NCBI RefSeq assembly: GCF_965232925.1
Contig: NZ_CBDDRA010000001.1
Location: forward strand, 1 to 64,000
DNA from: Tumidithrix helvetica PCC 7403
GTDB lineage: Bacteria; Cyanobacteriota; Cyanobacteriia; Pseudanabaenales; Pseudanabaenaceae
Reading direction: 5' to 3'
Length of the DNA: 64,000 bases
Below the pieces are notes generated by a model. That model saw only the letters and a list, made by a program, of their open reading frames with translations. It had not been told where the DNA came from and did no database searches. The position numbers and the translations under genes were made by a program. Shown piece by piece: positions 885 to 41,588 of the stretch; within the stretch, counting starts at the first letter, position 1; each line of letters starts with the position of its first letter.

Positions 885-3800
885 CTATCTTGAATTGACC
901 CTAATTCAATAATTGCAGAAGACCTTACTAAGAAGTCAGGATCTTTTAATGCCTTGAGAAGTTCTATTTTCACCTCTGGACAACCTAATTTAATAAGAGC
1001 TTCTAATACATTTCTACGAGTAGTAGAGTCTTCGCATCTTATGGCTTTTAATAGAGATGGACATGCTTTTTTATCTCCGAGTTGTCCTAAAGCTGATGCT
1101 GCACACGCCTTATTCGAGGGATTTTCATTCTCAATGATTTTAATTAATTGTGGTATGGCTTTACTTAGAATTTCAATTTCTTCTGGAAATTGTCGAATTA
1201 ATTTAGCATCTAAAATATTGCAAGCACTAAGTTGAACCCAACTATCTGAATCACTCAATGCTTCTATTACTTTTGACAGCGCATCTCTTCCCAAGAAGGT
1301 ATACAATTTCTGGATTGCATTACCTCTTTGAATGGGAATATTAGATTTTAAAGCAGAAATACACTGTTCTGCTTCTCTTTTTTGTATTGCCTCATGATTA
1401 AGACGTGAAGACTTTATATTTTTCTGGATTTGCAAAGATATTTGATCTCTCACAAATTCCAATGAATGTTCAGATTCCAAATGAACATAATGATCTAAAT
1501 CTAAACGTGCTTCGTTTAAGAGAGGAATAACTTCGCTACCACCTAATTCCCTCAACATTTTTACTACAGTTATTTTAAGTGATACATCTTTACTAGATAA
1601 AACTTTAGACAAGGTATTTAGAACCTTTTGGCGATCAAGTTCTTTTAATGTTTCAACTGCTAGTCTCTTTATTTGACGTTCAGGATTTTCTGTCGCTTTG
1701 AGTAAGCTAAGAATTGCTTCTTCATTCACAAATTTTTGCAATGCGAATACCGCTCTTAGGCGAACATCTACTGATGAGTCATTTTGTAACACTCTATCCA
1801 AAATTGGGATTGCAATGTTATTCTTAGAGTCACCTAAAGCCCAAACTATATTTTCTCGAATTTTAGGGGCTGAGTCTTTCAAAGCAATCTCCGATAGAGT
1901 AATAATTACATCGCAAGGCATTTTTCTTAATGCCCAAGCCGCTCTTCTACGAACATTTTCATTTTGATGGCTGAGTAAAGTTTTGAACCCATCGACAGAT
2001 TGAATTGACTCAGTTTTTTCTAAAAGCGTAATTTTAACAAGGTCAGTCGTATTAATATTTTCAACTAGCTTAACTGTTGTCTCCTGAATTTCTGCTTTTG
2101 CCTCACCTGATAGTCTTGCGCCCAAAAATAAATCAACATCTAAAGCTTGTTGTACGACTTGTTCTACTAAATCATTGATGTCTGGGAACCCAAGCATGAT
2201 AGCGATCGCCTCAGTCCATTTTAGATAATTGAGATAATCCATCTGAAATGGCGTATATTTCTGATCTTCTTTTTTTTCTATAAGTTCAGGTAGCTTAGCA
2301 AGTATATACTCTGCCGCATAGTACTCTTGAAGCGATGGATGGCAAAACTGAACTTTACGACTACCAGCAGTTCCATTACATTGTAATAAATGATTGCTCA
2401 ATAAATTTTTCCGTATTTTTTCTCTGCCAATCAAGGTCAGAACATCTCCTTCATTAAAAGGCTTTTCAGAACGAGTCATTTCAAATGCAAGTAAGCTTAA
2501 CTGGGATCGCATCTCGGTCAAAACAACCCAATCAACTTCATCTTTCGCTTCTCTGGAATAGATATCTGTAAATTCCTGGTAAGCTTCTCCACGAGTATTA
2601 GGAGTCTCTTTAAGAGGATTTTGCTTAAAAATAATGTATAACATCCAAACCATCAGAGGAGTTTGCCCAAAATCACGCACGCGATCGCATAACTCCTGAA
2701 CCCGACTATTACCATGATGATCGGGTAATTTTTCACTAAAAAAGTCTTTAACCTTTTCAGAGCTTAATGGTTGAATTTCTAGCTTTGTCTGGATGCCTAA
2801 ATTACCTACATTAATATCGCGTGTAGTTGCAATCATCGGGAGATGATCACCACAGAAATACTTAAAAGCTCTATATCCATCACTTGATAACTCATTAACA
2901 CCATCTGCAAGCAGCACTAACCGCTTATACTTAATAAGTCTCTTTATATAAGTTATCTGTTCACTTTCCTGCATCTCTTCCAAAAATTCAAATCCTTCAA
3001 ATGCATCTCTAATCAATAGTAAAAAATCTGACTGATTCTGATAATCTTTTAACTTAATTAATAGTGGAATAGGAGAATTTGGATTTTGTAGTGCTTCTTT
3101 TGCCGCTTCAAGCAAAACTTTAGCTAAAATAGTTGATTTACCCGCTCCTGCTTTACCAACAATTAAAACTCGTTCGCTTGAAACTTGGCTAAGTGCATCT
3201 AAAATTGGCAATATAGCTGTCTTATCATCATCACTCGCTGAAAGTGAATTAGTCTCATTATTGAGTTTAGACTTAGGCACCTTTACAGTTAGTTCAAGCT
3301 CCTGCCAAGGTGCATTATTAATTTCATTCATGAAAGAATAAGAATCTTCCCACCAATCTTGATATTTCTGCTTAACAGCCTCTAGATAATTCCCTTCCTC
3401 CAAACTCATCACACCATTTGCTTTTGCACAATCCATTGCTAGTTGCTTTTCTTTTCTTATTTCATCTATTTCATTAATAGTGGCTTGATGGATCTCTTCA
3501 CCACGACGGATAAAAACAGTGCTTTTCGGATATCGCGTTCCATTAGGGAGCATCAGATCGCGGGTTGTTTCATGCAAATAAGGTGTGGGCGGAATAGATA
3601 CTATGAATAGTTGTTTACTATCCATCTCTATGAATTTGCATTGGATATCAGGAATAGGTGGATTACAGCAAGCATTAACTTTTTGAAGGATTTCTTTAGG
3701 AGTCAATGTAATGTGACTACAATCATACAAGTCTCTTGTTCCATCAGATTTCAGTTTGTCTTCAACTCCAACAATCAAAAATGCCGTTTCCCCAGCAGTA

Positions 3801-5125: not shown

Positions 5126-6025
5126 ATGTTTGAAGTCTCAGTTCCTGCCACCACTGGTAATCTTGGTCCCGGGTTTGACTGTTTAGGTGCAGCCCTATCG
5201 CTTTATAACAAGTTTCAGTTTGCGGTGTCAGACGAGCTGAAGATTACAGCCTCTGGGGCAGGGGCAGATAAAGTTGCGAAAAATAAATCCAACCTTGTTT
5301 ACGAGAGCTTAGAAAAGTTTTATGCCCATATCGGTCAGCCAAAACCAATTATCTCTCTACATATTGATGCTCAGGTTCCGCTAGCAAGGGGGTTAGGTAG
5401 CTCGGCAACGGCAATTGTGGGTGGATTGGTAGGGGCAAATCTCTTGGCTGGCTCCCCTCTAGATCAAAAAGATTTGCTGCAATTGGCGATCGACATGGAG
5501 GGACATCCCGATAATGTCGTACCTGCCATGTTAGGCGGCTGCTATTTGATGGCTTCCAATAAAAGTGGCGGATGGGAATTTTGTCCAATTAACTGGCATA
5601 AACAGGTGGCGATCGCGATCGCCATTCCCAACTTTGAGCTTTCGACTGCCAAAGCCCGTCAAGTTTTGCCCCGCGACGTTCCGATGAAAGATGCCATCTT
5701 TAATGCCTCGCACTTAGCCCTGTTAACCCACGCCCTTACCACGGGCAATCAAGATTGGCTGCAATCGGGCTTGCAAGATCGCCTCCATCAACCCTACCGT
5801 CAAAGCCTAATTCCGGGGATGGAAGCCGTCCAGAAAGCGACGATCGAGGCAGGAGCCTATGGCATGGTGATCAGTGGGGCTGGCCCAACCCTATTAGCGC
5901 TTGGTAGCCCTGCTAAAATAGAAGCAGTAGCAGAAGCAATGCGTGCGGCTTGGCAAGAAACGGGTATGATTTCGACAGCGAAATGCCTCGCGATCGCCAA
6001 GAATGGCACAACTATTACAGGTTAA
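5126..6025 (+). CDS. thrB: homoserine kinase (GHMP kinase family)
   Basis: PATTGNLGPGFDCLGAAL is the GHMP motif, and the 299-aa length and overall layout match ThrB. Confidence 0.9.
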   Translation: MFEVSVPATTGNLGPGFDCLGAALSLYNKFQFAVSDELKITASGAGADKVAKNKSNLVYESLEKFYAHIGQPKPIISLHIDAQVPLARGLGSSATAIVGGLVGANLLAGSPLDQKDLLQLAIDMEGHPDNVVPAMLGGCYLMASNKSGGWEFCPINWHKQVAIAIAIPNFELSTAKARQVLPRDVPMKDAIFNASHLALLTHALTTGNQDWLQSGLQDRLHQPYRQSLIPGMEAVQKATIEAGAYGMVISGAGPTLLALGSPAKIEAVAEAMRAAWQETGMISTAKCLAIAKNGTTITG

Positions 6026-6199
6026 TTGCCTGAAGCACTTCAGCTACCTTAGCTTGCTACGGTTGACTACAGCGCTGAGACTGCGATCGCTTTGACGATC
6101 TGCGATCGGCGGTAGTGTATATTGTGGCTAATCTTTGTAGGCTAAAATCTCTATAGGTCTCTCGGTTAATATTCATTTTGTCAGTCGTTTGGAATCTCT

Positions 6200-6463: not shown

Positions 6464-7465
6464 TTGATTGGGATTTCTAATTCTTTGAGTAAACTAACTT
6501 CACCCTTACGCGTTGGTATTGTTGGTACTGGCTTTGTTGCCAAGTTACGCGCTGAAATTTTAAGCCAAGATCCGAGGGTACAACTCAAAGCGATCGCAGG
6601 TAGCGCCGACAAAGCCAATGCCCTTGCCCAAGCCTTTAATATCGAAGCCCATTCCTATTGGTCTGAGCTAGTGGTCAGACCCGATCTCGATCTCGTGGTT
6701 GTTGCCAATGTCAATCGCGATCACGGTGCAGTTGTGGCTCAAGCACTTAGAGCGGGTAAGCATGTCATTGTCGAATATCCTCTAGCCTTTAGCTATTTCG
6801 AAGCGGAAGCTCTCGTGCAATTGGCTCAAGCCAACCATTTACTCCTCCATGTCGAACATCTCGAACTGCTCGGTGCGGTTCATCAAACTGTCACAAAGGT
6901 TTTGCCAGACCTAGGGGAGCCATTTTATGCGCGTTATGTGACTCAAAATCCCCAGCGTCCAGCCCCAGATAAATGGACCTATATGCCAGAGCTGTTTGGG
7001 TTTCCCTTGGTCGCCGCAGTTTCGCGCGTGCATCGATTGACGGCTCTATTTGGTAAAGTCAAGTCGGTTGCTTGTCAGTTGCGCTATCAAGGCGATGCCT
7101 TGCCTCGACGATATACTTCTTGTATTTGCAACGCCCAGCTTCAGTTTGTCAGTGGGCTAGTTGCCGATATTAGCTACAGCAAAGGCGAACATCTGTGGAA
7201 ATCAGAGCGCAGTATGGAGATTCAAGGTAGCAGTGGTGCTGTTTTATTTGAGGGTGAGTCGGGCAAATTAATTACGGCAGATGGTGAAACCGTACTTACC
7301 GTCGATAGTCCTAAGGGTCTGTTTAAACGCGATACAGAAAATGTTTTAGACTATTTGTTTGATGGCGTTCCACTCTATACCAATTCGGACAGTTCGCTCC
7401 ACGCGATCGCAGTCGCCTGCGCTGCCGAAAAAGCGGCAAAAACAAATACTGTGATTGAAGTTTAA
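6464..7465 (+). CDS. Gfo/Idh/MocA-family NAD(P)-dependent oxidoreductase
   Basis: The N-terminal Rossmann fold VGIVGTGFVA is followed by the EYPLA motif characteristic of this family. Confidence 0.85.
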   Translation: MIGISNSLSKLTSPLRVGIVGTGFVAKLRAEILSQDPRVQLKAIAGSADKANALAQAFNIEAHSYWSELVVRPDLDLVVVANVNRDHGAVVAQALRAGKHVIVEYPLAFSYFEAEALVQLAQANHLLLHVEHLELLGAVHQTVTKVLPDLGEPFYARYVTQNPQRPAPDKWTYMPELFGFPLVAAVSRVHRLTALFGKVKSVACQLRYQGDALPRRYTSCICNAQLQFVSGLVADISYSKGEHLWKSERSMEIQGSSGAVLFEGESGKLITADGETVLTVDSPKGLFKRDTENVLDYLFDGVPLYTNSDSSLHAIAVACAAEKAAKTNTVIEV

Positions 7466-7657: not shown

Positions 7658-8692
7658 ATGGCAATCAACAAAGTACTGCTGCTATCAGCCAATCCAACCA
7701 ATACCGATCGCTTGCGGGTAGAGGCAGAATTTCGCGAAATCGAGACCTGTTGTCAAAAATCGACGTTACGCGATCGCTTTGCGATTGTGGCAAAAGGAGC
7801 CTTACGGATTGAGGATCTGCAACCCGTTTTGATTCAAGAAGCACCCAAAGTGGTGCATTTTTCGGGACATGGGGCAGCAGAGAATGGATTGGTTTTAGAA
7901 ACGGATGCAGGCACATGGGAACTGGTTGCCACAGAACCCCTCGCGGAACTGTTTCGCATTCTCCAAAATGGTATTGATTGCGTCGTGTTAAATGCTTGTT
8001 TCTCTCAGGTGCAGGCAGAGGCGATCGCCCATCATGTGCCCTACGTCTTGGGCATAAATCAGGCAATTGGCGATACGGCAGCGATCGCATTTGCCAAGGG
8101 ATTTTATGGCGCACTGTTTGAAGGCAAATCGGCGAAGGATGCCTTTGAGTTGGGCAAAAATCGCATCGCCTTAAAAAATATTCCCGAAGTTCAAACACCA
8201 GTTCTGATAGAACGCCACGGCGGAACACATCCCCAAAATGGGAATCGCATCCCCAACCAAGTTTTACCACTCCAGATCGCGCTAGAAGAACCCGAAGGAA
8301 CGGTACGAATTGGTTTGCAATTCTACATTCCCCGATCGCCTCAAGAAGAAGGCGCCTACGAAGCGATCGCCCGCCTCCATGCTCTCTTTCGTTTCAAGTC
8401 TCCCGATCGCATGGGCAAATCTTCGCTCTTAGTGCGAACCTTAGAAGAAGCCCGTCGATTGGGCAACCGCACGACATGGAGCGACCTGCAAAAATGCGAT
8501 CGCAAATTCCTAGAAAACATGGATCGGTTTTTGCAATGGTTCTGTGTTGTGATTGGACGCAATTTGGGCGTGAAAGCCAAACCAACCGATAGATGGGATG
8601 ATGTTTTTGGCGCCAATGGTATCTGTACGGAATTTTTTGAAGAACATCTGATCGGCGAGGATTATGAAAAAACTTTTGCAACTGGGGCTTAG
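7658..8692 (+). CDS. CHAT-domain (caspase-like) protease fused to a truncated AAA-like (AAA_35) domain
   Basis: The catalytic dyad context is VVHFSGHG ... CVVLNACFS. The N-terminus KVLLLSANPTNTDRLRVEAEFREIE is typical of cyanobacterial CHAT proteins. The C-terminus FRFKSPDRMGKSSLL...FLQWFCVVIGRNL matches the start of the cyanobacterial AAA-like domain, but the ORF stops before the expected Walker B. Confidence 0.75.
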   Translation: MAINKVLLLSANPTNTDRLRVEAEFREIETCCQKSTLRDRFAIVAKGALRIEDLQPVLIQEAPKVVHFSGHGAAENGLVLETDAGTWELVATEPLAELFRILQNGIDCVVLNACFSQVQAEAIAHHVPYVLGINQAIGDTAAIAFAKGFYGALFEGKSAKDAFELGKNRIALKNIPEVQTPVLIERHGGTHPQNGNRIPNQVLPLQIALEEPEGTVRIGLQFYIPRSPQEEGAYEAIARLHALFRFKSPDRMGKSSLLVRTLEEARRLGNRTTWSDLQKCDRKFLENMDRFLQWFCVVIGRNLGVKAKPTDRWDDVFGANGICTEFFEEHLIGEDYEKTFATGA

Positions 8693-24540: not shown

Positions 24541-25215
24541 TTAATTGCGAACGCCTTCTAACAAACGCGAAAAGTAAAACTGCGTGCAGGTTAGTTCTTT
24601 ACGCTTTACCTGAAATCCATTATCCGCCAATAAGCGTTTGATATCAGACTCAGCATGGAGATAAGCGCGGGTGGTTTTGCTGGGGCCGGGGAATAGTTCG
24701 CCCACTTTTTTGAGTAGGGAGTAATAGGCATTTTTTGGCGCAAAACTGAGAATTAAGCGGGATTTTGCCATGGATGCCAAGTGTTTAATCATCGACTCGG
24801 CTTGCTCGATCGGATAGTGAATCAGCACATCCAGACAAATCACCGTATCGTATTCACCCGATAGACTCTCTAAATCGCTGACCGTAAATACTGGGTTTTC
24901 AGGATCGGTAGCGCGTGTTTTTGCCTCGGCAATCATTTGCTTGGAAATATCGCTGGCATATACCTTTGCCCCTGCGGCGGCGAGGGGCAGGCTTAAACTG
25001 CCAACCCCACAACCCGCATCGCAAACGCTGATTTGGCTGTAGTTGCCGTCTTTTTTAAACCATTGCAGCACGTAGTCTACGGTCTGCTGGTGTCCTGTGC
25101 GAATATCTAGTTGTACTTTATTGACTTTGACGGATTCATCGGCATAGATGCGTCGCCAGCGGTCAAAGCCAACGGTATTGAAATAATTGCGGACAACTTC
25201 TTTGTCAGTGGTCAT
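24541..25215 (-). CDS. chlM: magnesium-protoporphyrin IX O-methyltransferase
   Basis: VCDAGCGVGSLSLPLAAAGAKVYASDIS is the SAM-binding motif in the ChlM context, and the protein is 224 aa. Confidence 0.85.
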   Translation of the reverse strand: MTTDKEVVRNYFNTVGFDRWRRIYADESVKVNKVQLDIRTGHQQTVDYVLQWFKKDGNYSQISVCDAGCGVGSLSLPLAAAGAKVYASDISKQMIAEAKTRATDPENPVFTVSDLESLSGEYDTVICLDVLIHYPIEQAESMIKHLASMAKSRLILSFAPKNAYYSLLKKVGELFPGPSKTTRAYLHAESDIKRLLADNGFQVKRKELTCTQFYFSRLLEGVRN

Positions 25216-25245: not shown

Positions 25246-25341
25246 TATAGCAATCCTAGATGAGTAGGGGCAATTCATGAATTGCCCCTACTCATTTACG
25301 CTGAGAAAAGAATCTCTCGCAGATCGAATAGGATTGCTATA
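25246..25341. repeat. MITE-like palindromic element, family A, copy 1
   Basis: The terminal inverted repeats are tatagcaatccta and taggattgctata, flanking the perfect 28-bp core palindrome gtaggggcaattcatgaattgcccctac. The second copy is at 38188-38297. Confidence 0.55.
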
Positions 25342-25407
25342 TGAAAACGCACAAGCATTCATAATTCTACTGAACAAGCCACCTACTCGAATGATTTTTC
25401 CGATCGC

Positions 25408-26565
25408 ATGACATTGACAATTGCCGATCGCTTGTTACATTGGTACGACCAACATCGCCGCCAGCTACCTTGGCGCGATCATCCCGACCCCTATGCGGTC
25501 TGGGTATCAGAGATTATGCTGCAACAAACCCGCGTTGACACAGTAATTCCCTACTACGATCGCTGGTTGGCACAATTCCCCACGATCGCCGATCTGGCTG
25601 CGGCTTCTTTACAGGATGTTTTGAAACTCTGGGAGGGTTTGGGCTATTACAGTCGTGCCAGAAATTTACATCAAGCTGCCAAACAAGTCGTTCGGGATTA
25701 TGGCGGTCAACTTCCCAATAACCTGCAAGACCTGCGGAAATTGTCGGGGATTGGCAGATACACCGCTGGCGCGATCGCTTCCATTTGCTTTGCTTGTGAC
25801 GAACCAACGCTGGATGGCAATATTCGGCGGGTGCTCTCTAGGCTGTTTAATGTGGTGGAACCTTTAGGCTCTTCCCAAGGCGATCGCATCCTTTGGGAAC
25901 TGGCAAGAACGCATCTTCCCTCTGGACGCGCAGGGGACTACAACCAAGCTTGGATGGATTTGGGTGCGACGATCTGCACGCCGCGCCATCCTCAATGCGA
26001 ACTCTGTCCGCTGCGATCGGATTGTCAAGCCTATGGGTTGGGCATTCAAAGCGATCGCCCCGTACCGAAACCCCACAAACAGATTCCTCAGCGATCGGCT
26101 GTGGCAGCGATTATTCTGCAAGAAACTGAATCTGGATCGAAGGTCTTGCTGACTAAGCGACAGGAGAAAGGCTTGCTGGGTGGATTGTGGGAGTTTCCCT
26201 GTTGCTATGTGGATGAGAATTTGACTGGCGATTCCTTACAGGACGCGTCCCGCCGCGAAGGCGCAAACCTGCCAAAGTTCCTACACCAATTTCTCTTGAC
26301 TGAATTTAGTACTGAATTTGGCTCTGAATTCGTGACTGCATTTGCGAAGGAATTTCCTGTGGGAACCTATGTTCCCAATTTGTTTGGAACCTACAAACAT
26401 GCCTACACCCATTTTCGAGTGACGCTTCATGCCTATCTTTTTCCGTTTAGAGAATCATCAGAGAAATTGTGCAAACACCCCTGCTTAGATTGGGTTGCGA
26501 TCGCGGAGTTATCCAACTATCCTATGGGAAAACTCGCTCGCCAGATCTCCAAAAATCTATGCTAA
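25408..26565 (+). CDS. mutY: A/G-specific adenine DNA glycosylase
   Basis: There is an HhH-GPD domain, an Fe-S cluster motif (CTPRHPQCELCPLRSDC) and a C-terminal NUDIX-like domain. Confidence 0.9.
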   Translation: MTLTIADRLLHWYDQHRRQLPWRDHPDPYAVWVSEIMLQQTRVDTVIPYYDRWLAQFPTIADLAAASLQDVLKLWEGLGYYSRARNLHQAAKQVVRDYGGQLPNNLQDLRKLSGIGRYTAGAIASICFACDEPTLDGNIRRVLSRLFNVVEPLGSSQGDRILWELARTHLPSGRAGDYNQAWMDLGATICTPRHPQCELCPLRSDCQAYGLGIQSDRPVPKPHKQIPQRSAVAAIILQETESGSKVLLTKRQEKGLLGGLWEFPCCYVDENLTGDSLQDASRREGANLPKFLHQFLLTEFSTEFGSEFVTAFAKEFPVGTYVPNLFGTYKHAYTHFRVTLHAYLFPFRESSEKLCKHPCLDWVAIAELSNYPMGKLARQISKNLC

Positions 26566-26616: not shown

Positions 26617-26682
26617 CAGGGCGAGCACGGGGGCATCGCCCCTACCACAATTCGTAGGGGCAGCGCCCCCGTGCCTGCCCTG
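26617..26682. repeat. long imperfect palindrome: 29-nt arms with 5 mismatches and an 8-nt loop
   Basis: The left arm cagggcgagcacgggggcatcgcccctac pairs with the right arm gtaggggcagcgcccccgtgcctgccctg. It shares the gtagggg/cccctac motif with MITE family A. Confidence 0.4.
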
Positions 26683-26748: not shown

Positions 26749-26790
26749 GGATTTCAGCTTTTCTTATCTCGAACTGAGGTTATGCTAGTT
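26749..26790. repeat. solo end fragment of MITE family B
   Basis: ttttcttatctcgaactgagg matches the right end at 16131-16160. Confidence 0.3.
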
Positions 26791-33275: not shown

Positions 33276-33430
33276 TAAACGATCCTCTTGAAATAATTTA
33301 TGATTTTGTTCACGAAGGTGGACTCCTTACAAAAGTCGAGTATCTATTCGATGATTACTTCGACTTTGCGCCAGTACCTCTAATACTTCATACGGAGCAT
33401 AGACTTCTTGTCGTTTAGATCGAGAATTTC

Positions 33431-33458
33431 AGGTTTTCTTATCCCGAACTGATGATAC
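33431..33458. repeat. solo end fragment of MITE family B
   Basis: aggttttcttatcccgaactga. Confidence 0.3.
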
Positions 33459-33961: not shown

Positions 33962-36838
33962 ATGCGCTCTCGTCTGAAATTAATTGGTGTTACTGCGATC
34001 GCGCTATCTCTCTCTTTCAGCCAAGTCTCTACCCTCTATCCCCTAGAACCTGCTTCTGCCCAAACAACACAAGAGCGCAAGCTAGTTTTAGCATTGAATG
34101 AATCGCTTAGGGAATTACTAGGGCCTGCTTCTGCCCAAACGACACTACTAAATCGTCAGGCAGAGGCAGATCGGCTGTTGCAGCAAGGGATTCAGCAAGC
34201 TTACATCAGTCAGTTTGAGGCAGCATTTCAATCATGGCAGCAAGCATTACAGATTTACCGAGCGATCGGCAACCGTCAGGGAGAAAGCTATGCGCTGGGA
34301 AATCTGGGAAACGTATACCAAGCCCTCGGCAAGTACGACAAAGCCATCGAGTACGCAGAGCAAGCCTTAGCGATTGCGCAGGAACTAAAAGACAAAAAGA
34401 GTGAGGGTACAGCGCTAGGAAATCTGGGAAACGCTTACTATTCCCTCGGCAGGTACGACAAAGCGATCGAGTACCAACTGCAAAGCTTAGCGATCGCGCG
34501 GGAAATCAAAGACAGACTGGGTGAGGGACAGTCGCTGGGAAATCTGGGAATTGCTTACAATGCCCTCGGCAAGTACGACAAAGCGATCGAGTACCAACTG
34601 CAAAGATTAGCGATCGCGCGGGAAATCAAAGACAGACTGGGTGAGGGACAGTCGCTGGGAAATCTGGGAAACGCTTACGATGACCTCGGCAAGTACGACA
34701 AAGCGATCGAGTACCAACTGCAAAGCTTAGCGATCGCGCGGGAAATCAAAGACAGACTGGGTGAGGGACAGTCGCTGGGAAATCTGGGAATTGCTTACCG
34801 AAACCTCGGCAAGTATGACAAAGCCATCGAGTACCAACTGCAAAGATTAGCGATCGCGCGGGAAATCAAAGACAGACTGGGTGAGGGCGCAGCGCTGGGA
34901 GGTCTGGGACTCACTTACTTTTATCTGGGTAAGTACGACAAAGCGATCGAGTACCAACTGCAAAGCTTAGCGATCGCGCGGGAAATCAAAAACAGACTGG
35001 GTGAGGGTACAACGCTGGGAAATCTCGGAATTGCTTACGATGCTCTCGGCAAGTACGACAAAGCGATCGAGTACCAACTGCAAAGATTAGCGATCGCGCA
35101 GGAAATCAAAGATAGGAAGGGTGAGGAACAGTCACTGGCAAATCTGGGAATTGCTTACCGAAACCTCGGCAAGTACGACAAAGCGATCGAGTACCAACTG
35201 CAAAGCTTAGCGATCACGCGGGAAATCAAAGACAGACTGGTTGAAGGCGCAGTGCTTGGAAATCTGGGAAACGCTTACATATACCTCGGCAAGTACGACA
35301 AAGCGATCGAGTACCAACTGCAAAGCTTAGCGATCACGCGGGAAATCAAGGATAGAGAAGGCGAAGGCAAAGCGCTCAACAATATCGGCTCTGTCTTGGC
35401 AACCCAAAAACAACCAGATCTTGCCATTCTCTTTTACAAACAATCCGTCAAAGTATGGGAGTCCATTCGCAAAGATATTCGCAAACTCGATAAATCGGAG
35501 CAAAAATCTTATTTAGAAACCGTCTCTGTTAGCTATCGTAGTCTCGTCGATCTCCTACTCCAACAAGGGCGAGTCACTGAAGCATTACAAGTTCTCGACT
35601 TGCTCAAAATCCAAGAACTCGAAGACTATCTCAAAAATGTCAAAGGAAACGATCGCACGGCAAAGGGAGTCGAACTTTTAGCGCCAGAGAAAGCGATGAG
35701 CGAACAGCTATCAGCTCTCAGCTATGAAAAGATTCCAGAACTCAACCGCCAACTTGCCAGCCAGATTCAGCAACTGCCAAAATCAGAAATCAACAAAGTT
35801 CCTGACTACTTACAAAAGCTACCAAAAGGAGCTGTCCTACTCTATCCCCTGATTCTCGAAGATCGTTTGGAACTGATCGTCTTCTCCGCCAATACCTTCC
35901 CCATCAACCGCACCGTTCCCATCAAAAAAGCCGATCTAGAGAAACTCGTTACAGATGTTCGCGCTGACTTGCGAGACTACACTTCCCTAGACATCAAAAA
36001 CTCTAGCCCCAAACTCTACGACATTCTGATCAAACCCATCGAAGCCGATCTCAAACAAGCCAACGCTACCACCATTCTCTATGCCCCTGACGGAATCCTG
36101 CGCTACATTCCCCTTGCTGCACTTTATGATGGCAAACAGTGGTTAGTAGAGAAATATCGCATCGATAACCTGATTGCCTATAGCCTCTTCGATCCAGATA
36201 GCAAACCTCAATCCAACATTCGTATCTTTGCAGGTGCATTTGGTGGTAAAAAAGGAGAAAACCGATTTGGAGTTGACGGATTGCCTGCCACCATTCCCGA
36301 AGTCGAAAACATTCAAACTTCATTCCCAAATACGACCAAGCTCATCGAGCAGGACTTCACAGCCCAAGCCAGCAAAGTAAAAGTTTCTGGTAATGCGATC
36401 GTCCACATCGCCACCCATGCTAAGTTTATATCGGGCAGCCCCTTAGATTCCTACGTGTTGTTTGGCGATGGCAGCAAAGTCACCCTAGCCGAGATTAATG
36501 ACTGGCAGCTCAAGGATGCCGATTTAGTCGTTCTCAGTGCCTGCGAGACAGGTGTAGGCAGCTTAGGCAATGGTGCGGAAATTCTCGGTTTTGGCTATCA
36601 GGTACAGCGTGCGGGGGCAAAGGCTTCGATCGCTTCTCTCTGGACGGTATCCGATGGCGGCACGCAGTTGTTAATGGAAGCGCTGTATAGCAATTTGCAA
36701 AAGGGAAATACCAGCATGTCAACTTCGCTCAGAGAGGCACAGCTCAGCATGATTCGCAGATCGGTAAAGCAGGGAGAGATTAACTTCAACCATCCCTATT
36801 ACTGGTCTGCTTTCGTCCTGATTGGGAATGGGCTGTAG
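33962..36838 (+). CDS. TPR-repeat / CHAT-domain protease, 958 aa
   Basis: There are more than 10 TPR units (LGNLGNAY...GKYDKAIEY). The C-terminal CHAT dyad context is IVHIATHAKF ... LVVLSACETG. Confidence 0.85.
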   Translation: MRSRLKLIGVTAIALSLSFSQVSTLYPLEPASAQTTQERKLVLALNESLRELLGPASAQTTLLNRQAEADRLLQQGIQQAYISQFEAAFQSWQQALQIYRAIGNRQGESYALGNLGNVYQALGKYDKAIEYAEQALAIAQELKDKKSEGTALGNLGNAYYSLGRYDKAIEYQLQSLAIAREIKDRLGEGQSLGNLGIAYNALGKYDKAIEYQLQRLAIAREIKDRLGEGQSLGNLGNAYDDLGKYDKAIEYQLQSLAIAREIKDRLGEGQSLGNLGIAYRNLGKYDKAIEYQLQRLAIAREIKDRLGEGAALGGLGLTYFYLGKYDKAIEYQLQSLAIAREIKNRLGEGTTLGNLGIAYDALGKYDKAIEYQLQRLAIAQEIKDRKGEEQSLANLGIAYRNLGKYDKAIEYQLQSLAITREIKDRLVEGAVLGNLGNAYIYLGKYDKAIEYQLQSLAITREIKDREGEGKALNNIGSVLATQKQPDLAILFYKQSVKVWESIRKDIRKLDKSEQKSYLETVSVSYRSLVDLLLQQGRVTEALQVLDLLKIQELEDYLKNVKGNDRTAKGVELLAPEKAMSEQLSALSYEKIPELNRQLASQIQQLPKSEINKVPDYLQKLPKGAVLLYPLILEDRLELIVFSANTFPINRTVPIKKADLEKLVTDVRADLRDYTSLDIKNSSPKLYDILIKPIEADLKQANATTILYAPDGILRYIPLAALYDGKQWLVEKYRIDNLIAYSLFDPDSKPQSNIRIFAGAFGGKKGENRFGVDGLPATIPEVENIQTSFPNTTKLIEQDFTAQASKVKVSGNAIVHIATHAKFISGSPLDSYVLFGDGSKVTLAEINDWQLKDADLVVLSACETGVGSLGNGAEILGFGYQVQRAGAKASIASLWTVSDGGTQLLMEALYSNLQKGNTSMSTSLREAQLSMIRRSVKQGEINFNHPYYWSAFVLIGNGL
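34290..35390 (+). repeat. about 9 tandem copies of a 120-nt unit (40 aa; TPR units) with very high nucleotide identity
   Basis: The unit ...ctcggcaagtacgacaaagcgatcgagtaccaactgcaaag(c/a)ttagcgatcgcgcgggaaatcaaagacagactgggtgagggacagtcgctgggaaatctgggaa... recurs head-to-tail. Confidence 0.7.
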
Positions 36839-36840
36839 CT

Positions 36841-36864
36841 AACCTCAGTTCGGGTTAATTACCC
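36841..36864. repeat. solo end fragment of MITE family B, opposite orientation
   Basis: aacctcagttcgggttaatta. Confidence 0.3.
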
Positions 36865-38172
36865 TTTACCCAAAACCAAATCTAAATTTCGCTGAGCCTT
36901 TGCCAAGGCTTCCTCTGGGGTACTCTTTTGTAACAGCGTTGCCTCGATCGCTCTGCCCACGCTCTCAGAAATACGCGGATAGTCGGGTGAGAGAGGACGG
37001 GTGCGCCCCGCCGACATTTGTTGCAAAAAGATACTTACCTCTGGTTGTTGCTCGATATATTTGGCATATTCCGCACTCTTCTGCGATTTGAGGTTGGTCG
37101 GTAAATAGCCTGTCTGGCTTGCCCATTCTGTCTGAAATGCTTCGCTCATGACAAACTCGGCAAATTTCCATGCGGCTGCTTCGCGTTCGGGAGAGCTTTT
37201 AAACAAAAACAGATTCTCTCCACCAATGGTAGTTGCCACGATGCGATCGCGTGGAATCGGCATCACGCCAAAATCAATTTTCTTTTTGGTCATAAACCGC
37301 AGCGCCCAAGAGCCGCTGATCTGCATGGCAACTTTCCCCGCGATAAAGTTGTCTTCTTCATAACCGCGCTCGGGCTGAGACAAAATTGCTGCATTTGATT
37401 TCACCAAGTCATCCCAAAGTTTCAGCGCTGTAGTTGCTTCGGGGGTATTTAACTGCGGCAGATCGCCCTTAACCAAATTGCCACCCGCACTCCATAAAAA
37501 GGGCGTCCAGATAAACACCGTAAACTCACCCTTGCCGAGGGGTAAAAAGATGCCGTGGCGATCGATGCGACCATCCCCATCAGTGTCGCGGGTTAGCTGT
37601 TGGGCAACTTGGCGCAACTCATCCCAAGTTTCGGGTAATTTTTTGATGCCCGCCGCCTCAAACAAACTGGGACGATAGTAAATGCCGATATTATTCACTC
37701 CAAACGGCACAGACCACAACCGATCTCTATACTGCATCGTCGGTAGCAGTCCTGGGTCGAGTTCGCTTGCCATAGGCGATCGCTTCAACAGGTCATCCAC
37801 AGGGCGAATGGCATCGAGTTCTACCAGTCGCCCTGTAATCATAGGGGAATACCACAGCAAATCTGGGGTGGCATTGCCGACCACAGCCGATAAAATCTTG
37901 GGAATTTGCTGATCGGGCTGTCCTGCATACACCGACTCCACAAAAATTTGGTTTTGGCTCTGGTTAAAGCGATCGACCAGTTTATTCACCACCTCGCGAT
38001 TGGTGGGCGGATTTACCCCCTGCCAAAACGTGAGATGAATTTTGCCATCTTGGACGGGTGCGCTACAACTTGCGAGTACCAAGCTAAATAGTAAAGCGAT
38101 CGCCCCCAAAGCAAAGCTAAGCAAGCGAAATCTCTCTTTAAAAACCATCAATATTGTGGGAATTCTATCCAT
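36859..38172 (-). CDS. ABC transporter substrate-binding lipoprotein, carbohydrate type
   Basis: A signal peptide with lipobox LASC precedes the family-1 extracellular solute-binding pattern. No permease or ATPase genes are adjacent. Confidence 0.8.
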   Translation of the reverse strand: MDRIPTILMVFKERFRLLSFALGAIALLFSLVLASCSAPVQDGKIHLTFWQGVNPPTNREVVNKLVDRFNQSQNQIFVESVYAGQPDQQIPKILSAVVGNATPDLLWYSPMITGRLVELDAIRPVDDLLKRSPMASELDPGLLPTMQYRDRLWSVPFGVNNIGIYYRPSLFEAAGIKKLPETWDELRQVAQQLTRDTDGDGRIDRHGIFLPLGKGEFTVFIWTPFLWSAGGNLVKGDLPQLNTPEATTALKLWDDLVKSNAAILSQPERGYEEDNFIAGKVAMQISGSWALRFMTKKKIDFGVMPIPRDRIVATTIGGENLFLFKSSPEREAAAWKFAEFVMSEAFQTEWASQTGYLPTNLKSQKSAEYAKYIEQQPEVSIFLQQMSAGRTRPLSPDYPRISESVGRAIEATLLQKSTPEEALAKAQRNLDLVLGKG

Positions 38173-38187
38173 GGGAATTTATAGGCA

Positions 38188-38297
38188 ACTGCCATGCTAT
38201 AGCAATCCTAAATGAGTGCGTAGGGGCAATTCATGAATTGCCCCTACAAGTCTAGGCAGAACAAAGAATCTCTTATGTATCACATAGGATTGTTATA
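38188..38297. repeat. MITE-like palindromic element, family A, copy 2
   Basis: tatagcaatccta ... gtaggggcaattcatgaattgcccctac ... ataggattgttata. Confidence 0.55.
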
Positions 38298-38333
38298 CAA
38301 AAAAGCTGACAGCTAACTGCTAATGGCTCTATC

Positions 38334-38981
38334 CTAACAGCGTGTGGAGATCAGCGCGTAAAACGGATCGCTATTGCCTGCATTTAGCCATGATAGAAAG
38401 CCTGGCATCTGGGTTGTTTGGACGATCGCCTCTGGCTTGGTAAATCCTTGGGGCACGGAGGCAAAATAACTTTTTACCAACTGTAAATGACTGGCATCGG
38501 AACCATCGCGCCAAGCTTGAATTGCCTTTTGGTAAAACATGCGATTGGAGAAGCTGACGATCGCGATCCCACCAGGTTTGAGAATGCGATGGATTTCCGC
38601 AAAGATTGCCTCGGGATATTGGAGATACTGCACCGAGACGGTATTGAGCACCGCATCAAAGCTCCCATCCGCCAAGGGAAGTTGAGGATTTTGGTTGAGA
38701 TCTTGGACAAAGTAGCGATCGAGGCGAGGATTTCGTGCCAATTCCTCTTGGTTTAAACCATGCCCTTCCACATGGGCAAATTCCAAATCATCGGGCAAGT
38801 GCGACACCCAACTGCTCATCAGATCGAGAATCCGCGTCTGAGGGGTTAAGCGATCGCGATACAAATTGGTTAGTTGTTGAATAAAGCCATTGTCAACATG
38901 GGTAACAAAGCGGGGATATTCATAAAATAGCGCATCATCCGAAGTGTCTAATTTTGTGCGTTGATTAGGTTCTAGCTGCAT
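38334..38981 (-). CDS. class I SAM-dependent methyltransferase
   Basis: ILDLMSSW ... DAVLNTVSVQYL...LKPGGIAIV is the Methyltransf_11-type pattern. Confidence 0.8.
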   Translation of the reverse strand: MQLEPNQRTKLDTSDDALFYEYPRFVTHVDNGFIQQLTNLYRDRLTPQTRILDLMSSWVSHLPDDLEFAHVEGHGLNQEELARNPRLDRYFVQDLNQNPQLPLADGSFDAVLNTVSVQYLQYPEAIFAEIHRILKPGGIAIVSFSNRMFYQKAIQAWRDGSDASHLQLVKSYFASVPQGFTKPEAIVQTTQMPGFLSWLNAGNSDPFYALISTRC

Positions 38982-39561: not shown

Positions 39562-39751
39562 AGCTAAATTAGCTCTTAACTAATCCTTAACCAAAAAACT
39601 AACCGATCTTCAATCTTGCTGTCAATCTGGATCAAACAAAATTGCGGTAGTCTGGGCGAAACGCCCAGACTACCGCACACTTTTCGCAGCTTTCTGAAAC
39701 AGATTCGCTCAACTGGTTTATCGCGTTAACGAACGCCCAAACCAATCGCGC

Positions 39752-40807
39752 TTATACTCCAACTGTTGCCAAAACTGGGCTGGGGACAGTCTTGTTAAAC
39801 AACTGTGCGAGTTGACGAGGGGCGCGATCGCACCAATTACGCTTGCCATAGGCATAGCCAGCGATCAAGGGCACAGCAAGGGTTGCTTCGGCAAATACCA
39901 TCTGTTCGGTGGCGATATCGACCTTGCCCCAAGAATGGGCTTCCCGTAGGGTTGAGCCAGACAATGCGCCATCGCGTTCGTCTGCCACGGTAACTTGAAC
40001 TGCATATTTATGCATGGCAGCCTCAAAACCAAGTAGCTCAGCAGCAACGACTGTGTCTTGGGCAAAGTTTTTAGGAACGCCACCACCGATCATCATCAAA
40101 CCCGTATGGGGTGAAGCGAGCTTGCATTGGGTAAGTTCGCGGAAATCGCGCACAGAGTCAATCGTGACATGGGACTCAGGAGAGTACCACTGATGGTGCA
40201 CCAAGCCAAAGCCAGCCGAGCAATCGCTAAAGGCAGGCACAAAGATTGGGACTTGATGTTCGTAAGCAGCCAACACGACAGAATGACGGTTCTTGGCGTT
40301 TTTATCTAGATAGGCACCCATTTCATAGATAAACTCGCGAGAAGAGTGCGGACGATGGGGAAGAGTTTCAGCAATTTCAGCGATCGTCATGTCGCAAATC
40401 CGCAGCTGATCTTCATCAATGTAGGTGTCGTAGATGCGATCGATGCGTTCTTCGCGCAAAACCTCATCATTGGCAAGAATATCGCCAACGTAATGATGAA
40501 ATCCTAAGGCTTCAAAGAAATCTTGATCGACGATGTTTGCGCCCGTAGACACGATCATGTCTACCATATTGTTTTCGATCAAATCGACAACAACCCCTTT
40601 CAGACCAGCACTAAATAGAGAACCAGCCAAACAAAGAATGATCGCGCAATCTTTGTCTTGAATCATCTGGTCGTAGATTTGAGCTGCACGACCCAAATTT
40701 CTGCCTTGAAAAGCTGTTTGTGCCATGGCATCGACTAAACCGACTACGTCATGAGCCTTGATGTCGATGTGTTTGACGGTTTGGTGCAATAGTTGTGCGC
40801 GCTTCAT
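39752..40807 (-). CDS. deoxyhypusine synthase-like protein
   Basis: A DHS-family NAD-binding pattern is present (GGGVPKNF, ERIDRIYDTYIDEDQL). I preferred the ATG at 40807 (MKRAQLLHQ..., with GAGGG upstream) over the ORF-track start at 40879. Confidence 0.7.
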   Translation of the reverse strand: MKRAQLLHQTVKHIDIKAHDVVGLVDAMAQTAFQGRNLGRAAQIYDQMIQDKDCAIILCLAGSLFSAGLKGVVVDLIENNMVDMIVSTGANIVDQDFFEALGFHHYVGDILANDEVLREERIDRIYDTYIDEDQLRICDMTIAEIAETLPHRPHSSREFIYEMGAYLDKNAKNRHSVVLAAYEHQVPIFVPAFSDCSAGFGLVHHQWYSPESHVTIDSVRDFRELTQCKLASPHTGLMMIGGGVPKNFAQDTVVAAELLGFEAAMHKYAVQVTVADERDGALSGSTLREAHSWGKVDIATEQMVFAEATLAVPLIAGYAYGKRNWCDRAPRQLAQLFNKTVPSPVLATVGV

Positions 40808-41588
40808 GGTTGGTGACCCTCTAAAAAAATAGCTCAAGTAAAATTTTGGACATTGGCATAGAGGCAAACCCTTTGACACAACTCAATTTCAGCATCCGCT
40901 CATCCAGCGATATTTGCTGAGTGAGGTTAGAGCATTTCGCAGCAGTTTGACAGGCAAAGTTTATTGACTCAGGGTTTTACCTAGAGCTAAAAAGTTTGCA
41001 TGGTATTGACATCACAGGTTAAAAGGCACAACTACATCACAAGGTGAGGTATGCAATGTAATTGCGAACTGAGGATGACAAAAACTACAAGACGCTAAAA
41101 TTTTGACGCTGAGAAAAGAGCGTTTAAGAGCAGTTGCTGTCTATTAAAATTTAAAAATTCTTGCCTTCTCACTAGAGAGAAGCGATCGACCTAGGCTGTT
41201 GACTGTAGAATAGCTAGATGGGCTTACAGAGTAGAAACCCAAAAGTATAGTCACAACCCTGATAGTTATCAGGTCGATCAGATTATACTGGGCCCCTCGC
41301 AGGCATCATCCCAAGAAAGTGCAGGATCGGATTGCCTTCTTTCATCTAACTTGATGTTTAGCTGCCAATCGCAGCCAATTATTAAGATTAATTTGTTCAA
41401 TTTTTATACAATAAAAACAACAAGTTAGCTACGATCATAGCACTAGTTTACAAATACAGCAAAATGGCGCTAGAGGATTTATCCCGTTTAGGTTTTACTA
41501 TATGTAGGAAGGCAGTGAGACATAACCCTACTTCTTAAGATTGACGCATCCATAAAAGCACTAAATCGTTAGTTATGAGGGGGTTGTC

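Follow-up and report, generated by a model that had tools for sequence, protein, structure and literature searches.

The question raised by this locus is whether a short inverted-repeat element and the perfect palindrome that it contains form one mobile unit or two. The first 64,000 nucleotides of contig NZ_CBDDRA010000001.1 from the cyanobacterium Tumidithrix helvetica PCC 7403 (in the following the window, i.e., the whole stretch of DNA that was analyzed) carry two such elements. [quoted passage not shown] The MITE reading holds for the outer shell but not for the core. The shell is an IS630-family MITE with the TIR TAGCAATCCTA inserting at TA, and the core matches a double-foot repetitive extragenic palindrome (REP) of TnpA_REP subclass 2.4, which is group 4 of the tyrosine transposases associated with REPs (RAYTs), and is independent of the MITE. 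It is highly probable that the window elements are an IS630 MITE carrying an independent double-foot REP, i.e., nested non-autonomous mobile DNAs. Each of the two parts is of a published kind, and a precedent for their nesting has been published, too. The window is cyanobacterial in signature, with 45% G+C and 89 octamers of HIP1 (GCGATCGC), a palindrome that is highly over-represented in cyanobacterial genomes.

Copy 1 spans 25246-25341 (96 bp including its TA flanks) and copy 2 spans 38198-38297 (100 bp); the bodies of 92 bp and 96 bp, respectively, are without an open reading frame (ORF). Both copies begin with TATAGCAATCCTA (at 25246 and 38198). The right-hand ends read TAGGATTG(C/T)TATA, the inverted repeat of TATAGCAATCCTA, with the reverse complement being exact at 25329-25341 and having one mismatch at 38285-38297. 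The core GTAGGGGCAATTCATGAATTGCCCCTAC is a 28-bp perfect palindrome located at 25264-25291 and 38220-38247, which is 100% identical between the copies and lies 5 nt from the left TIR in one copy and 9 nt in the other. It matches twice in the window versus zero matches in 100 shuffles, and a TIR-to-TIR pattern search of the window returned only these two elements at a chance expectation of 0. The ends, core and internal box described as common to the two copies are all present; only the start of copy 2, originally placed at 38188, had to be shifted by 10 nt to 38198. A third, weak TIR pair at 49020-49081 was rejected as a family member, as its left "TIR" is an arm of a local 14-bp hairpin (CAATTAAGGATCGC/GCGATCCTTAATTG) and its ends are degenerate. 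The gene context is as originally claimed, both copies being situated in 5' intergenic regions. Copy 1 lies between the divergent genes chlM (24541-25215, minus strand) and mutY (25408-26565, plus strand), and copy 2 is bordered by the stop of a methyltransferase gene (38334-38981) and by the start of a gene for an ABC-transporter solute-binding protein (SBP; 36859-38172), both on the minus strand. The features of the two copies, in part defined by comparison with Tumidithrix elongata RA019, are as follows.

25246-25247, no strand: TA target-site duplication on the left of copy 1; a single TA is present at the empty site of RA019
25248-25339, no strand: body of the copy 1 MITE, 92 bp, with the TIRs TAGCAATCCTA at 25248-25258 and TAGGATTGCTA at 25329-25339; a 94-bp insertion (92 bp plus TA) relative to RA019
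25340-25341, no strand: TA target-site duplication on the right of copy 1, from the sequence and the comparison with RA019
25264-25291, no strand: putative double-foot REP in copy 1, GTAG...CTAC; the flanks ATGA/TCAT lengthen the palindrome to 25260-25295
25307-25317, plus strand: AAAGAATCTCT box of copy 1, common to both window copies and a marker of their subfamily
38198-38297, no strand: copy 2 with its TA flanks at 38198-38199 and 38296-38297, its body at 38200-38295 and its TIRs at 38200-38210 and 38285-38295 (TAGGATTGTTA, one mismatch)
38220-38247, no strand: putative double-foot REP in copy 2, 28 bp, from palindrome search and folding
38263-38273, plus strand: AAAGAATCTCT box of copy 2, common to both window copies

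The strongest evidence for the shell comes from T. elongata RA019, the closest relative available, whose ChlM protein is 98% identical to that encoded in the window. The mutY-chlM spacer comprises 98 bp in RA019 versus 192 bp in the window. In the alignment the RA019 spacer reads ...GCGTTTTCA-TA-GACTCAAATTT (GACTC...) with a single TA, while the window spacer reads ...GCGTTTTCA (TTTTCA)-TA-(92 bp)-TA-GGCTCAAATTT (GGCTC...). Copy 1 and the RA019 spacer are a precise filled/empty pair with TA duplication. The site of copy 1 is likewise empty in a more remote relative with a ChlM protein that is 85% identical. RA019 is without both copies, from which it follows that these are recent and dispensable. 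Beside the copy 1 site, a block of about 31 nt at 25351-25381 (GTGGCTTGTTCAGTAGAATTATGAATGCTTG, in chlM orientation) is kept even in the relative with the 85% identical ChlM, in which the spacer has otherwise diverged; the block possibly serves chlM or mutY as a promoter or operator.

Family-A is not restricted to the window. A metagenome scan with the pattern TAGCAATCCTA-N44-74-TAGGATTGYTA, with exact matching and all copy numbers being lower bounds, yielded at least 120 further TIR-bounded copies of 67-96 bp. TA is present on both sides in 99 of the 120 metagenome copies listed, as it is in both window copies. The contigs hosting these copies contain 0.72 HIP1 per kb, about 47 times the chance level, which identifies them as cyanobacterial. 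In the 121 members examined the arms are conserved up to about 25 bp (TAGCAATCCTAAATGATTTGTGA...), and the interiors are highly variable with many unrelated hairpins. The AAAGAATCTCT box occurs in none of the 121 sampled metagenome MITEs and hence no REP-free relatives of the window subfamily were found there.

Autonomous partners of the shell were identified as well. The metagenome locus L139 contains at 2521-3667 an insertion sequence (IS) of 1147 bp that has the same ends and TA flanks and encodes HTH_23/HTH_29 and DDE_3 domains (Pfam DDE_3 at 6e-19). The plasmid homologues of its transposase are all cyanobacterial and carry the RefSeq name IS630 family transposase. In Nostoc punctiforme, an IS on plasmid pNPUN02 (around NPUN_RS36005) is bounded by TATAGCAATCCTATCTGGG... 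and ...TTTAGGATTGCTATA. The terminal 11-13 bp of these two cyanobacterial IS630 ISs are identical to those of the window elements (TA followed by TAGCAATCCTA) and the TA duplication is common to both. In contrast, the window elements are only 92-96 bp long and non-coding, and they carry the REP where the ISs carry the gene for the transposase with HTH and DDE_3 domains. The claim of a MITE-like mobile family is borne out by the TIRs, the TA duplication, the further copies, the autonomous IS630 partners with the same ends and the precise empty site.

With the cyanobacterial MITE Nezha of Anabaena and Nostoc (Zhou et al., 2008), Family-A has in common that the TIRs match those of an IS. Nezha is 130-170 bp long and has a 10-bp direct repeat such as CATTATCTAC, as reported for ISNpu3 (PMC3184786, PMC6042816). 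An assignment of Family-A to Nezha was rejected, since Family-A members are 67-100 bp long and have a TA duplication versus the 130-170 bp and the direct repeat of about 10 bp in Nezha.

In the preliminary description it was recommended to look for target-site duplications, and it was held that two copies without such duplications would suggest a local duplication rather than a mobile family. By that reading, an intergenic hairpin that is not mobile was copied by local segmental duplication, and in its favor only two copies are present in the 64-kb window, about 13 kb apart. However, the similarity between copy 1 and copy 2 ends exactly at the TA-flanked TIR ends, the empty site in a relative is precise and at least 120 copies with TA duplications exist elsewhere. 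The target-site duplications are found in the form of TA, and a local duplication retains next to no probability.

The core was analyzed by scanning 185,579 species-representative genomes for the 28-mer, with exact matching and the loop left free, so that the counts are lower bounds here as well. The exact 28-mer is present at no fewer than 119 genome loci, 64 of which are cyanobacterial; the remaining 55 are spread over at least 15 other phyla, among them Chloroflexota, Planctomycetota, Nitrospirota, Omnitrophota, Patescibacteria, Zixibacteria and Desulfobacterota. The isolate Gracilimonas tropica DSM 19535 is among the listed carriers, and several other genomes contain the 28-mer in multiple copies. 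Its flanks are unrelated between loci, and in the non-cyanobacterial loci the composition of the flanks is that of the host. No Family-A TIR was found beside the 28-mer at any of the 119 listed genome loci, the 28-mer is absent from all 121 other Family-A members sampled, and no direct-repeat duplication was found around it. The view of the palindrome as the family's own core is contradicted by these two counts and by the link to RAYT-type Y1 transposases described below.

The surroundings of the 28-mer show a particular pattern. The first flanking base pair is complementary in 64 of 120 listed copies, versus 25% expected, and the palindrome is perfectly extended by at least 5 bp in 23 of 121 listed copies (19%). 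By both observations, the 28-mer preferentially occupies the exact centre of larger palindromes. Furthermore, in Nostoc and Chamaesiphon no fewer than three other repeats bounded by TIRs contain it. A carrier repeat found in Nostoc and in one Pseudanabaena has the ends AGGACTTACGCAAA...TTTGCGTAAGTCCT around the 28-mer (L001, L012, L013, L023, L037, L073, L077, L078, L085, L095, L118 and L119), and two more carrier repeats read ATACCAATTCTATGTGAGG... and GGCGTTGCTGAAT.... In a Pseudanabaena metagenome-assembled genome (MAG; L002) the 28-mer is also located near chlM; this was rejected as conserved synteny as it stands after the chlM stop there and not before the start. Among public contigs, a single one encodes an identical ChlM protein, Logan contig ERR14790590_441 (L120); it stops inside the palindrome (window position 25289), which is compatible with the assembly breaking at a high-copy repeat.

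The 28-mer is also part of a wider sequence type. A scan of viral contigs for GTAGGGGC-N12-GCCCCTAC resulted in 146 matches representing 71 distinct 28-mers, mostly perfect palindromes, with GTAGGGGCAATTCATGAATTGCCCCTAC being the second commonest. From this rank it follows that GTAGGGGCAATTCATGAATTGCCCCTAC is one frequent member of a large superfamily. A composite junction of TIR and REP was not found in the viral contigs. Literature searches by sequence for the TIR and for the 28-bp palindrome returned unrelated primer matches only.

Clustering of every ORF located up to 3 kb from a palindrome pointed to a candidate enzyme for the core. This protein, 181-200 aa in length, recurs within about 200 bp of the 28-mer, or with the 28-mer inside its gene, at 5 of the 119 listed loci, in Chamaesiphon (L009), a Zixibacteria MAG (L015), Anaerolineaceae (L060), Gracilimonas (L082) and Dehalococcoidia (L088). 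Pfam Y1_Tnp is matched above threshold by each of the five proteins, which are 39-57% identical to one another and show the motifs MPNH[FIVL]H, WQRNYYE and YI(I/V/E/A)xNP. A search of the PDB with a profile of the five proteins gave E. coli TnpA_REP (4ER8) as the top match, while a single-sequence query gave no match. The gene is flanked by the 28-mer or by compensated variants of it (e.g., GTAGGGGTAATTCATGAATTACCCCTAC) in L009, L060 and L082, while the 28-mer is found on one side only in L015 and only within the gene in L088. The flanking REPs are arranged in the REPtron layout:

L009: REPs at 1838 and 2444, around the gene 1897-2439
L060: REPs at 5457 and 6091, around the gene 5510-6058
L082: REPs at 7149 and 7771, flanking the RAYT-like gene

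In four of the genes a double-foot REP is additionally located in frame, just after the HuH motif and at the same alignment position:

L015: in-gene double-foot REP at 6099-6126
L060: in-gene double-foot REP at 5789-5816
L082: in-gene double-foot REP at 7429-7456
L088: in-gene double-foot REP at 7708-7735

Of its three reading frames, the 28-mer has only a single open one. The in-gene REP encodes GAIHELPL in L060, L082 and L088 and GVLQYAPT in L015, where it originates from a different 28-mer.

TnpA_REP subclass 2.4, corresponding to RAYT group 4, was described to have the motifs NH[IFV]H, WQ and YIxNNP in a protein of about 194 aa (Quentin et al., 2018; PMC6006769). [quoted passage not shown] The core found here has the structure GTAG-GGGCAATT-CATG-AATTGCCC-CTAC with three G-C pairs at the stem base and a 4-nt loop. 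It resembles the subclass 2.4 REPs in its GTAG/CTAC feet, in the three-G-C stem base, in its location beside and within tnpA_REP genes and in being abundant in cyanobacteria and scattered elsewhere. In contrast to the REPs described for this subclass, the window REP is neither free-standing nor beside a transposase gene but is the cargo of a DDE-type MITE. While subclass 2.4, double-foot REPs and in-gene REPs as a general phenomenon have been published, a single 28-bp double-foot REP that is unchanged in at least 15 phyla beside deeply diverged RAYT-like genes is added here. Among the RAYT homologues on plasmids only four distant matches were found, which does not support plasmid carriage as the main route of spread.

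These data bear on the reading that the elements are a single-unit MITE, with the 28-bp palindrome as its own ancestral core and no separate REP. The palindrome has nearly the same place in both window copies and is 100% identical between them, and copy 1 was inserted as one unit of 92 bp, all of which this reading would accommodate. It is nevertheless very unlikely, as the palindrome is missing from all 121 other members of the TIR family, in which unrelated hairpins are found instead. Moreover, the 119 listed loci carry the palindrome without this TIR, it is present in the other TIR-bounded repeats as well as in no fewer than 15 phyla outside the cyanobacteria, and it flanks RAYT-like genes. 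Among the small dispersed repeats (SDRs) of cyanobacteria, SDR5 and SDR6 reportedly resemble the 28-mer in size, hairpin, nesting and the lack of a target duplication. That the 28-mer is a repeat of the SDR type (Elhai et al., 2008), spreading independently of any RAYT, appears unlikely, since the Y1 transposase link in five loci together with the published double-foot REP definition suffices without a new mechanism, and since the distribution of the 28-mer reaches far beyond cyanobacteria.

For the nested arrangement of REP and MITE the following mechanism is proposed. An IS630-family DDE transposase, supplied in trans, would bind the TAGCAATCCTA TIRs, cut the composite out and paste it into a TA that is thereby duplicated. 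TnpA_REP enzymes of the HUH/Y1 type would act on the REP hairpin in single-stranded DNA, and by such an activity the REP may have entered the MITE at an earlier time, with the apex of the MITE hairpin as the presumably likeliest point of entry. The bias of the 28-mer for palindrome centres fits an entry at this position. Because it lies inside the MITE, the REP would be carried along each time the MITE moves. We infer that the enzyme that moved the two window copies was the IS630 transposase acting in trans. A further junction of a truncated TIR and the REP is present on a plasmid of Pseudanabaena sp. ABRG5-3.

A precedent was reported for Anabaena variabilis (Di Nocera et al., 2013; PMC3733652, section 7): many of its GTAG-15 REP dimers are located within long palindromes TATAGGAnTnnnATTTGATTnnTGAAA--TTTCAnnAATCAAATnnnAnTCCTATA. 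REPs inserted into small palindromes were also described in Thermomicrobium (PMC3733652). As in the window, a GTAG-type REP occupies the middle of an inverted-repeat shell with TATAG... ends in A. variabilis, and the inner arm ATTTGATT..TGA is found in many Family-A members, too. The TIR reads TATAGGAnT... in A. variabilis versus TATAGCAATCCTA here, and the cargo is a REP dimer there versus a single double-foot REP here. The A. variabilis shell is a sister of the Family-A shell. However, it was not identified as an IS630 MITE and no REP-free shells were found by the authors, whereas REP-free shells are the majority here. New in the present analysis are the assignment of the shell to the IS630 MITEs, with its TA duplication and autonomous partners, the majority of REP-free shells and the insertion of a composite as one unit in copy 1. 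On the preferred reading of an IS630 MITE with an independent REP, the locus would be a clean and dated case of a RAYT-type REP that is nested in and moved by such a MITE, with a precise filled/empty pair.

Several observations weigh against this reading. Neither an IS630 transposase gene nor a RAYT gene was found within the 64-kb window. The best NCBIfam match of the five RAYT-like proteins is the REP-associated tyrosine transposase (REP_Tyr_transpos), which is reached with 60-70 bits only, compared to a curated cut-off of 80. The REP-bearing Family-A copies found are the two window copies and the ABRG5-3 junction, and both a single ancestral entry of the REP and separate entries fit this number. 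That the 28-mer is identical in many phyla partly results from the exact-match query itself. Copy 2 is missing from RA019 as copy 1 is, but about 55 bp of adjoining DNA are missing there, too, so that its empty site is not clean; in L244 and L245, where a clean empty site for copy 2 was sought, the element is absent together with adjoining DNA. The flanks of copy 2 that RA019 lacks comprise 38298-38333 and 38180-38197 (about 55 bp in total), and the methyltransferase stop nearly abuts the SBP start there. It may be that the copy 2 MITE went into a small insertion that was already there.

A possible, if rather doubtful, extension is that the REP gained a second way to spread that does not depend on a RAYT, by riding inside MITEs of DDE transposons. 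The basis for this idea is the insertion of copy 1 as one unit at a TA, together with the presence of the 28-mer in the other TIR-bounded repeats and its centring in palindromes in 19% of the listed copies. If true, the apexes of MITE hairpins would be preferred landing sites of subclass 2.4 REPs and MITEs would be their vehicles. This could help to explain how one REP sequence persists in genomes without a cognate RAYT, and why no fewer than 15 phyla have it in identical form although the RAYT proteins linked to it are only 39-57% identical.

The preliminary description had also pointed out that the hairpin could affect transcription of the neighboring genes. Folded as DNA, the elements reach -28.8 kcal/mol (copy 1) and -21.8 kcal/mol. 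As RNA the fold energies range from -34.5 to -50.1 kcal/mol with z values of -5 to -10, copy 1 being at about -49 to -50 kcal/mol and z about -9 to -10. No terminator signature was found at either locus on either strand, the hairpin lacking a T-rich tail, and the interior of the elements gave no promoter-like site. A weak promoter-like match on the minus strand (25420-25391), which is a match to the consensus only, would put copy 1 into the 5' untranslated region of chlM. A search of the whole window against Rfam gave no match at gathering score. The likeliest effect on chlM, mutY or the SBP gene would be the addition of a strong hairpin to a 5' untranslated region or to an intercistronic transcript.

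Whether the host has taken over the element as a regulatory device kept by selection, i.e., as attenuator or terminator, mRNA stabilizer or protein-binding site, was considered in this context. The copies lie close before start codons, at a distance of 30 nt for chlM, 66 nt for mutY and 25 nt for the SBP gene, their RNA folds are highly stable, and effects of REPs and MITEs on termination and on the stability of mRNA have been reported (PMC3733652, PMC3184786). However, such a device is improbable given the missing T-tail on either strand and the missing promoter-like site within the elements. The absence of both copies from RA019, despite its 98% identical ChlM, marks them as recent and dispensable, and the perfect two-strand symmetry without G-U variation points to recognition at the DNA level. 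For annotation, the two copies are to be regarded as recent insertions of selfish DNA and not as conserved regulatory sites.

A long palindrome at 26617-26682, located 52 nt after the mutY stop, had originally been presented as a motif related to the element. The palindrome is present but is no relative of the MITE or of the 28-mer, as it belongs to a different REP type and has only the foot GTAGGGGC in common with them. It consists of two inverted single-foot REPs with GTAG feet facing an 8-nt spacer:

26617-26645, minus strand: left REP unit, GTAG with the stem GGGCGA/TCGCCC and the loop TGCCCCCGTGC
26654-26682, plus strand: right REP unit, GTAG with the stem GGGCAG/CTGCCC and the loop CGCCCCCGTGC

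The stem differences between the two units are compensated and the loop GCCCCCGTGC is common to both. A third compensated variant of this single-foot REP type is present in the filamentous cyanobacterium Phorm 6 (L090, at 4997). The doublet is similar to REP doublets forming hairpins (REPINs), which are RAYT-dependent, hairpin-forming REP units (Bertels and Rainey, 2011; PMC3116915), and it shows their layout of two inverted REPs with a short spacer. The 28-mer does not have this layout, as it is one symmetric unit with no spacer and with a 4-nt loop. Moreover, the inheritance of classical REPIN-RAYT systems is described as mostly vertical, whereas the 28-mer REP is found across phyla.

Further repeats were observed in the window. 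A 27-bp palindrome of the GTAG...CTAC form at 39647-39673 (GTAGTCTGGGCGAAACGCCCAGACTAC) is extended by GCG/CGC and is followed on the minus strand by AATTTTGTTT; rather than being a REP, this palindrome probably terminates the minus-strand gene 39752-40879. A dispersed motif of 31 nt, ATTTCAGGTTTTCTTAKCCCGAACTGAnGTTA, is present in three copies with unrelated flanks (16133-16163, 26752-26782 and 33427-33457). Finally, and without relation to the elements, the ORF 33962-36838 (958 aa) contains at 34152-35411 nine tandem repeats of 120 bp that are 64-84% identical to the reference unit, and it encodes a repetitive protein.

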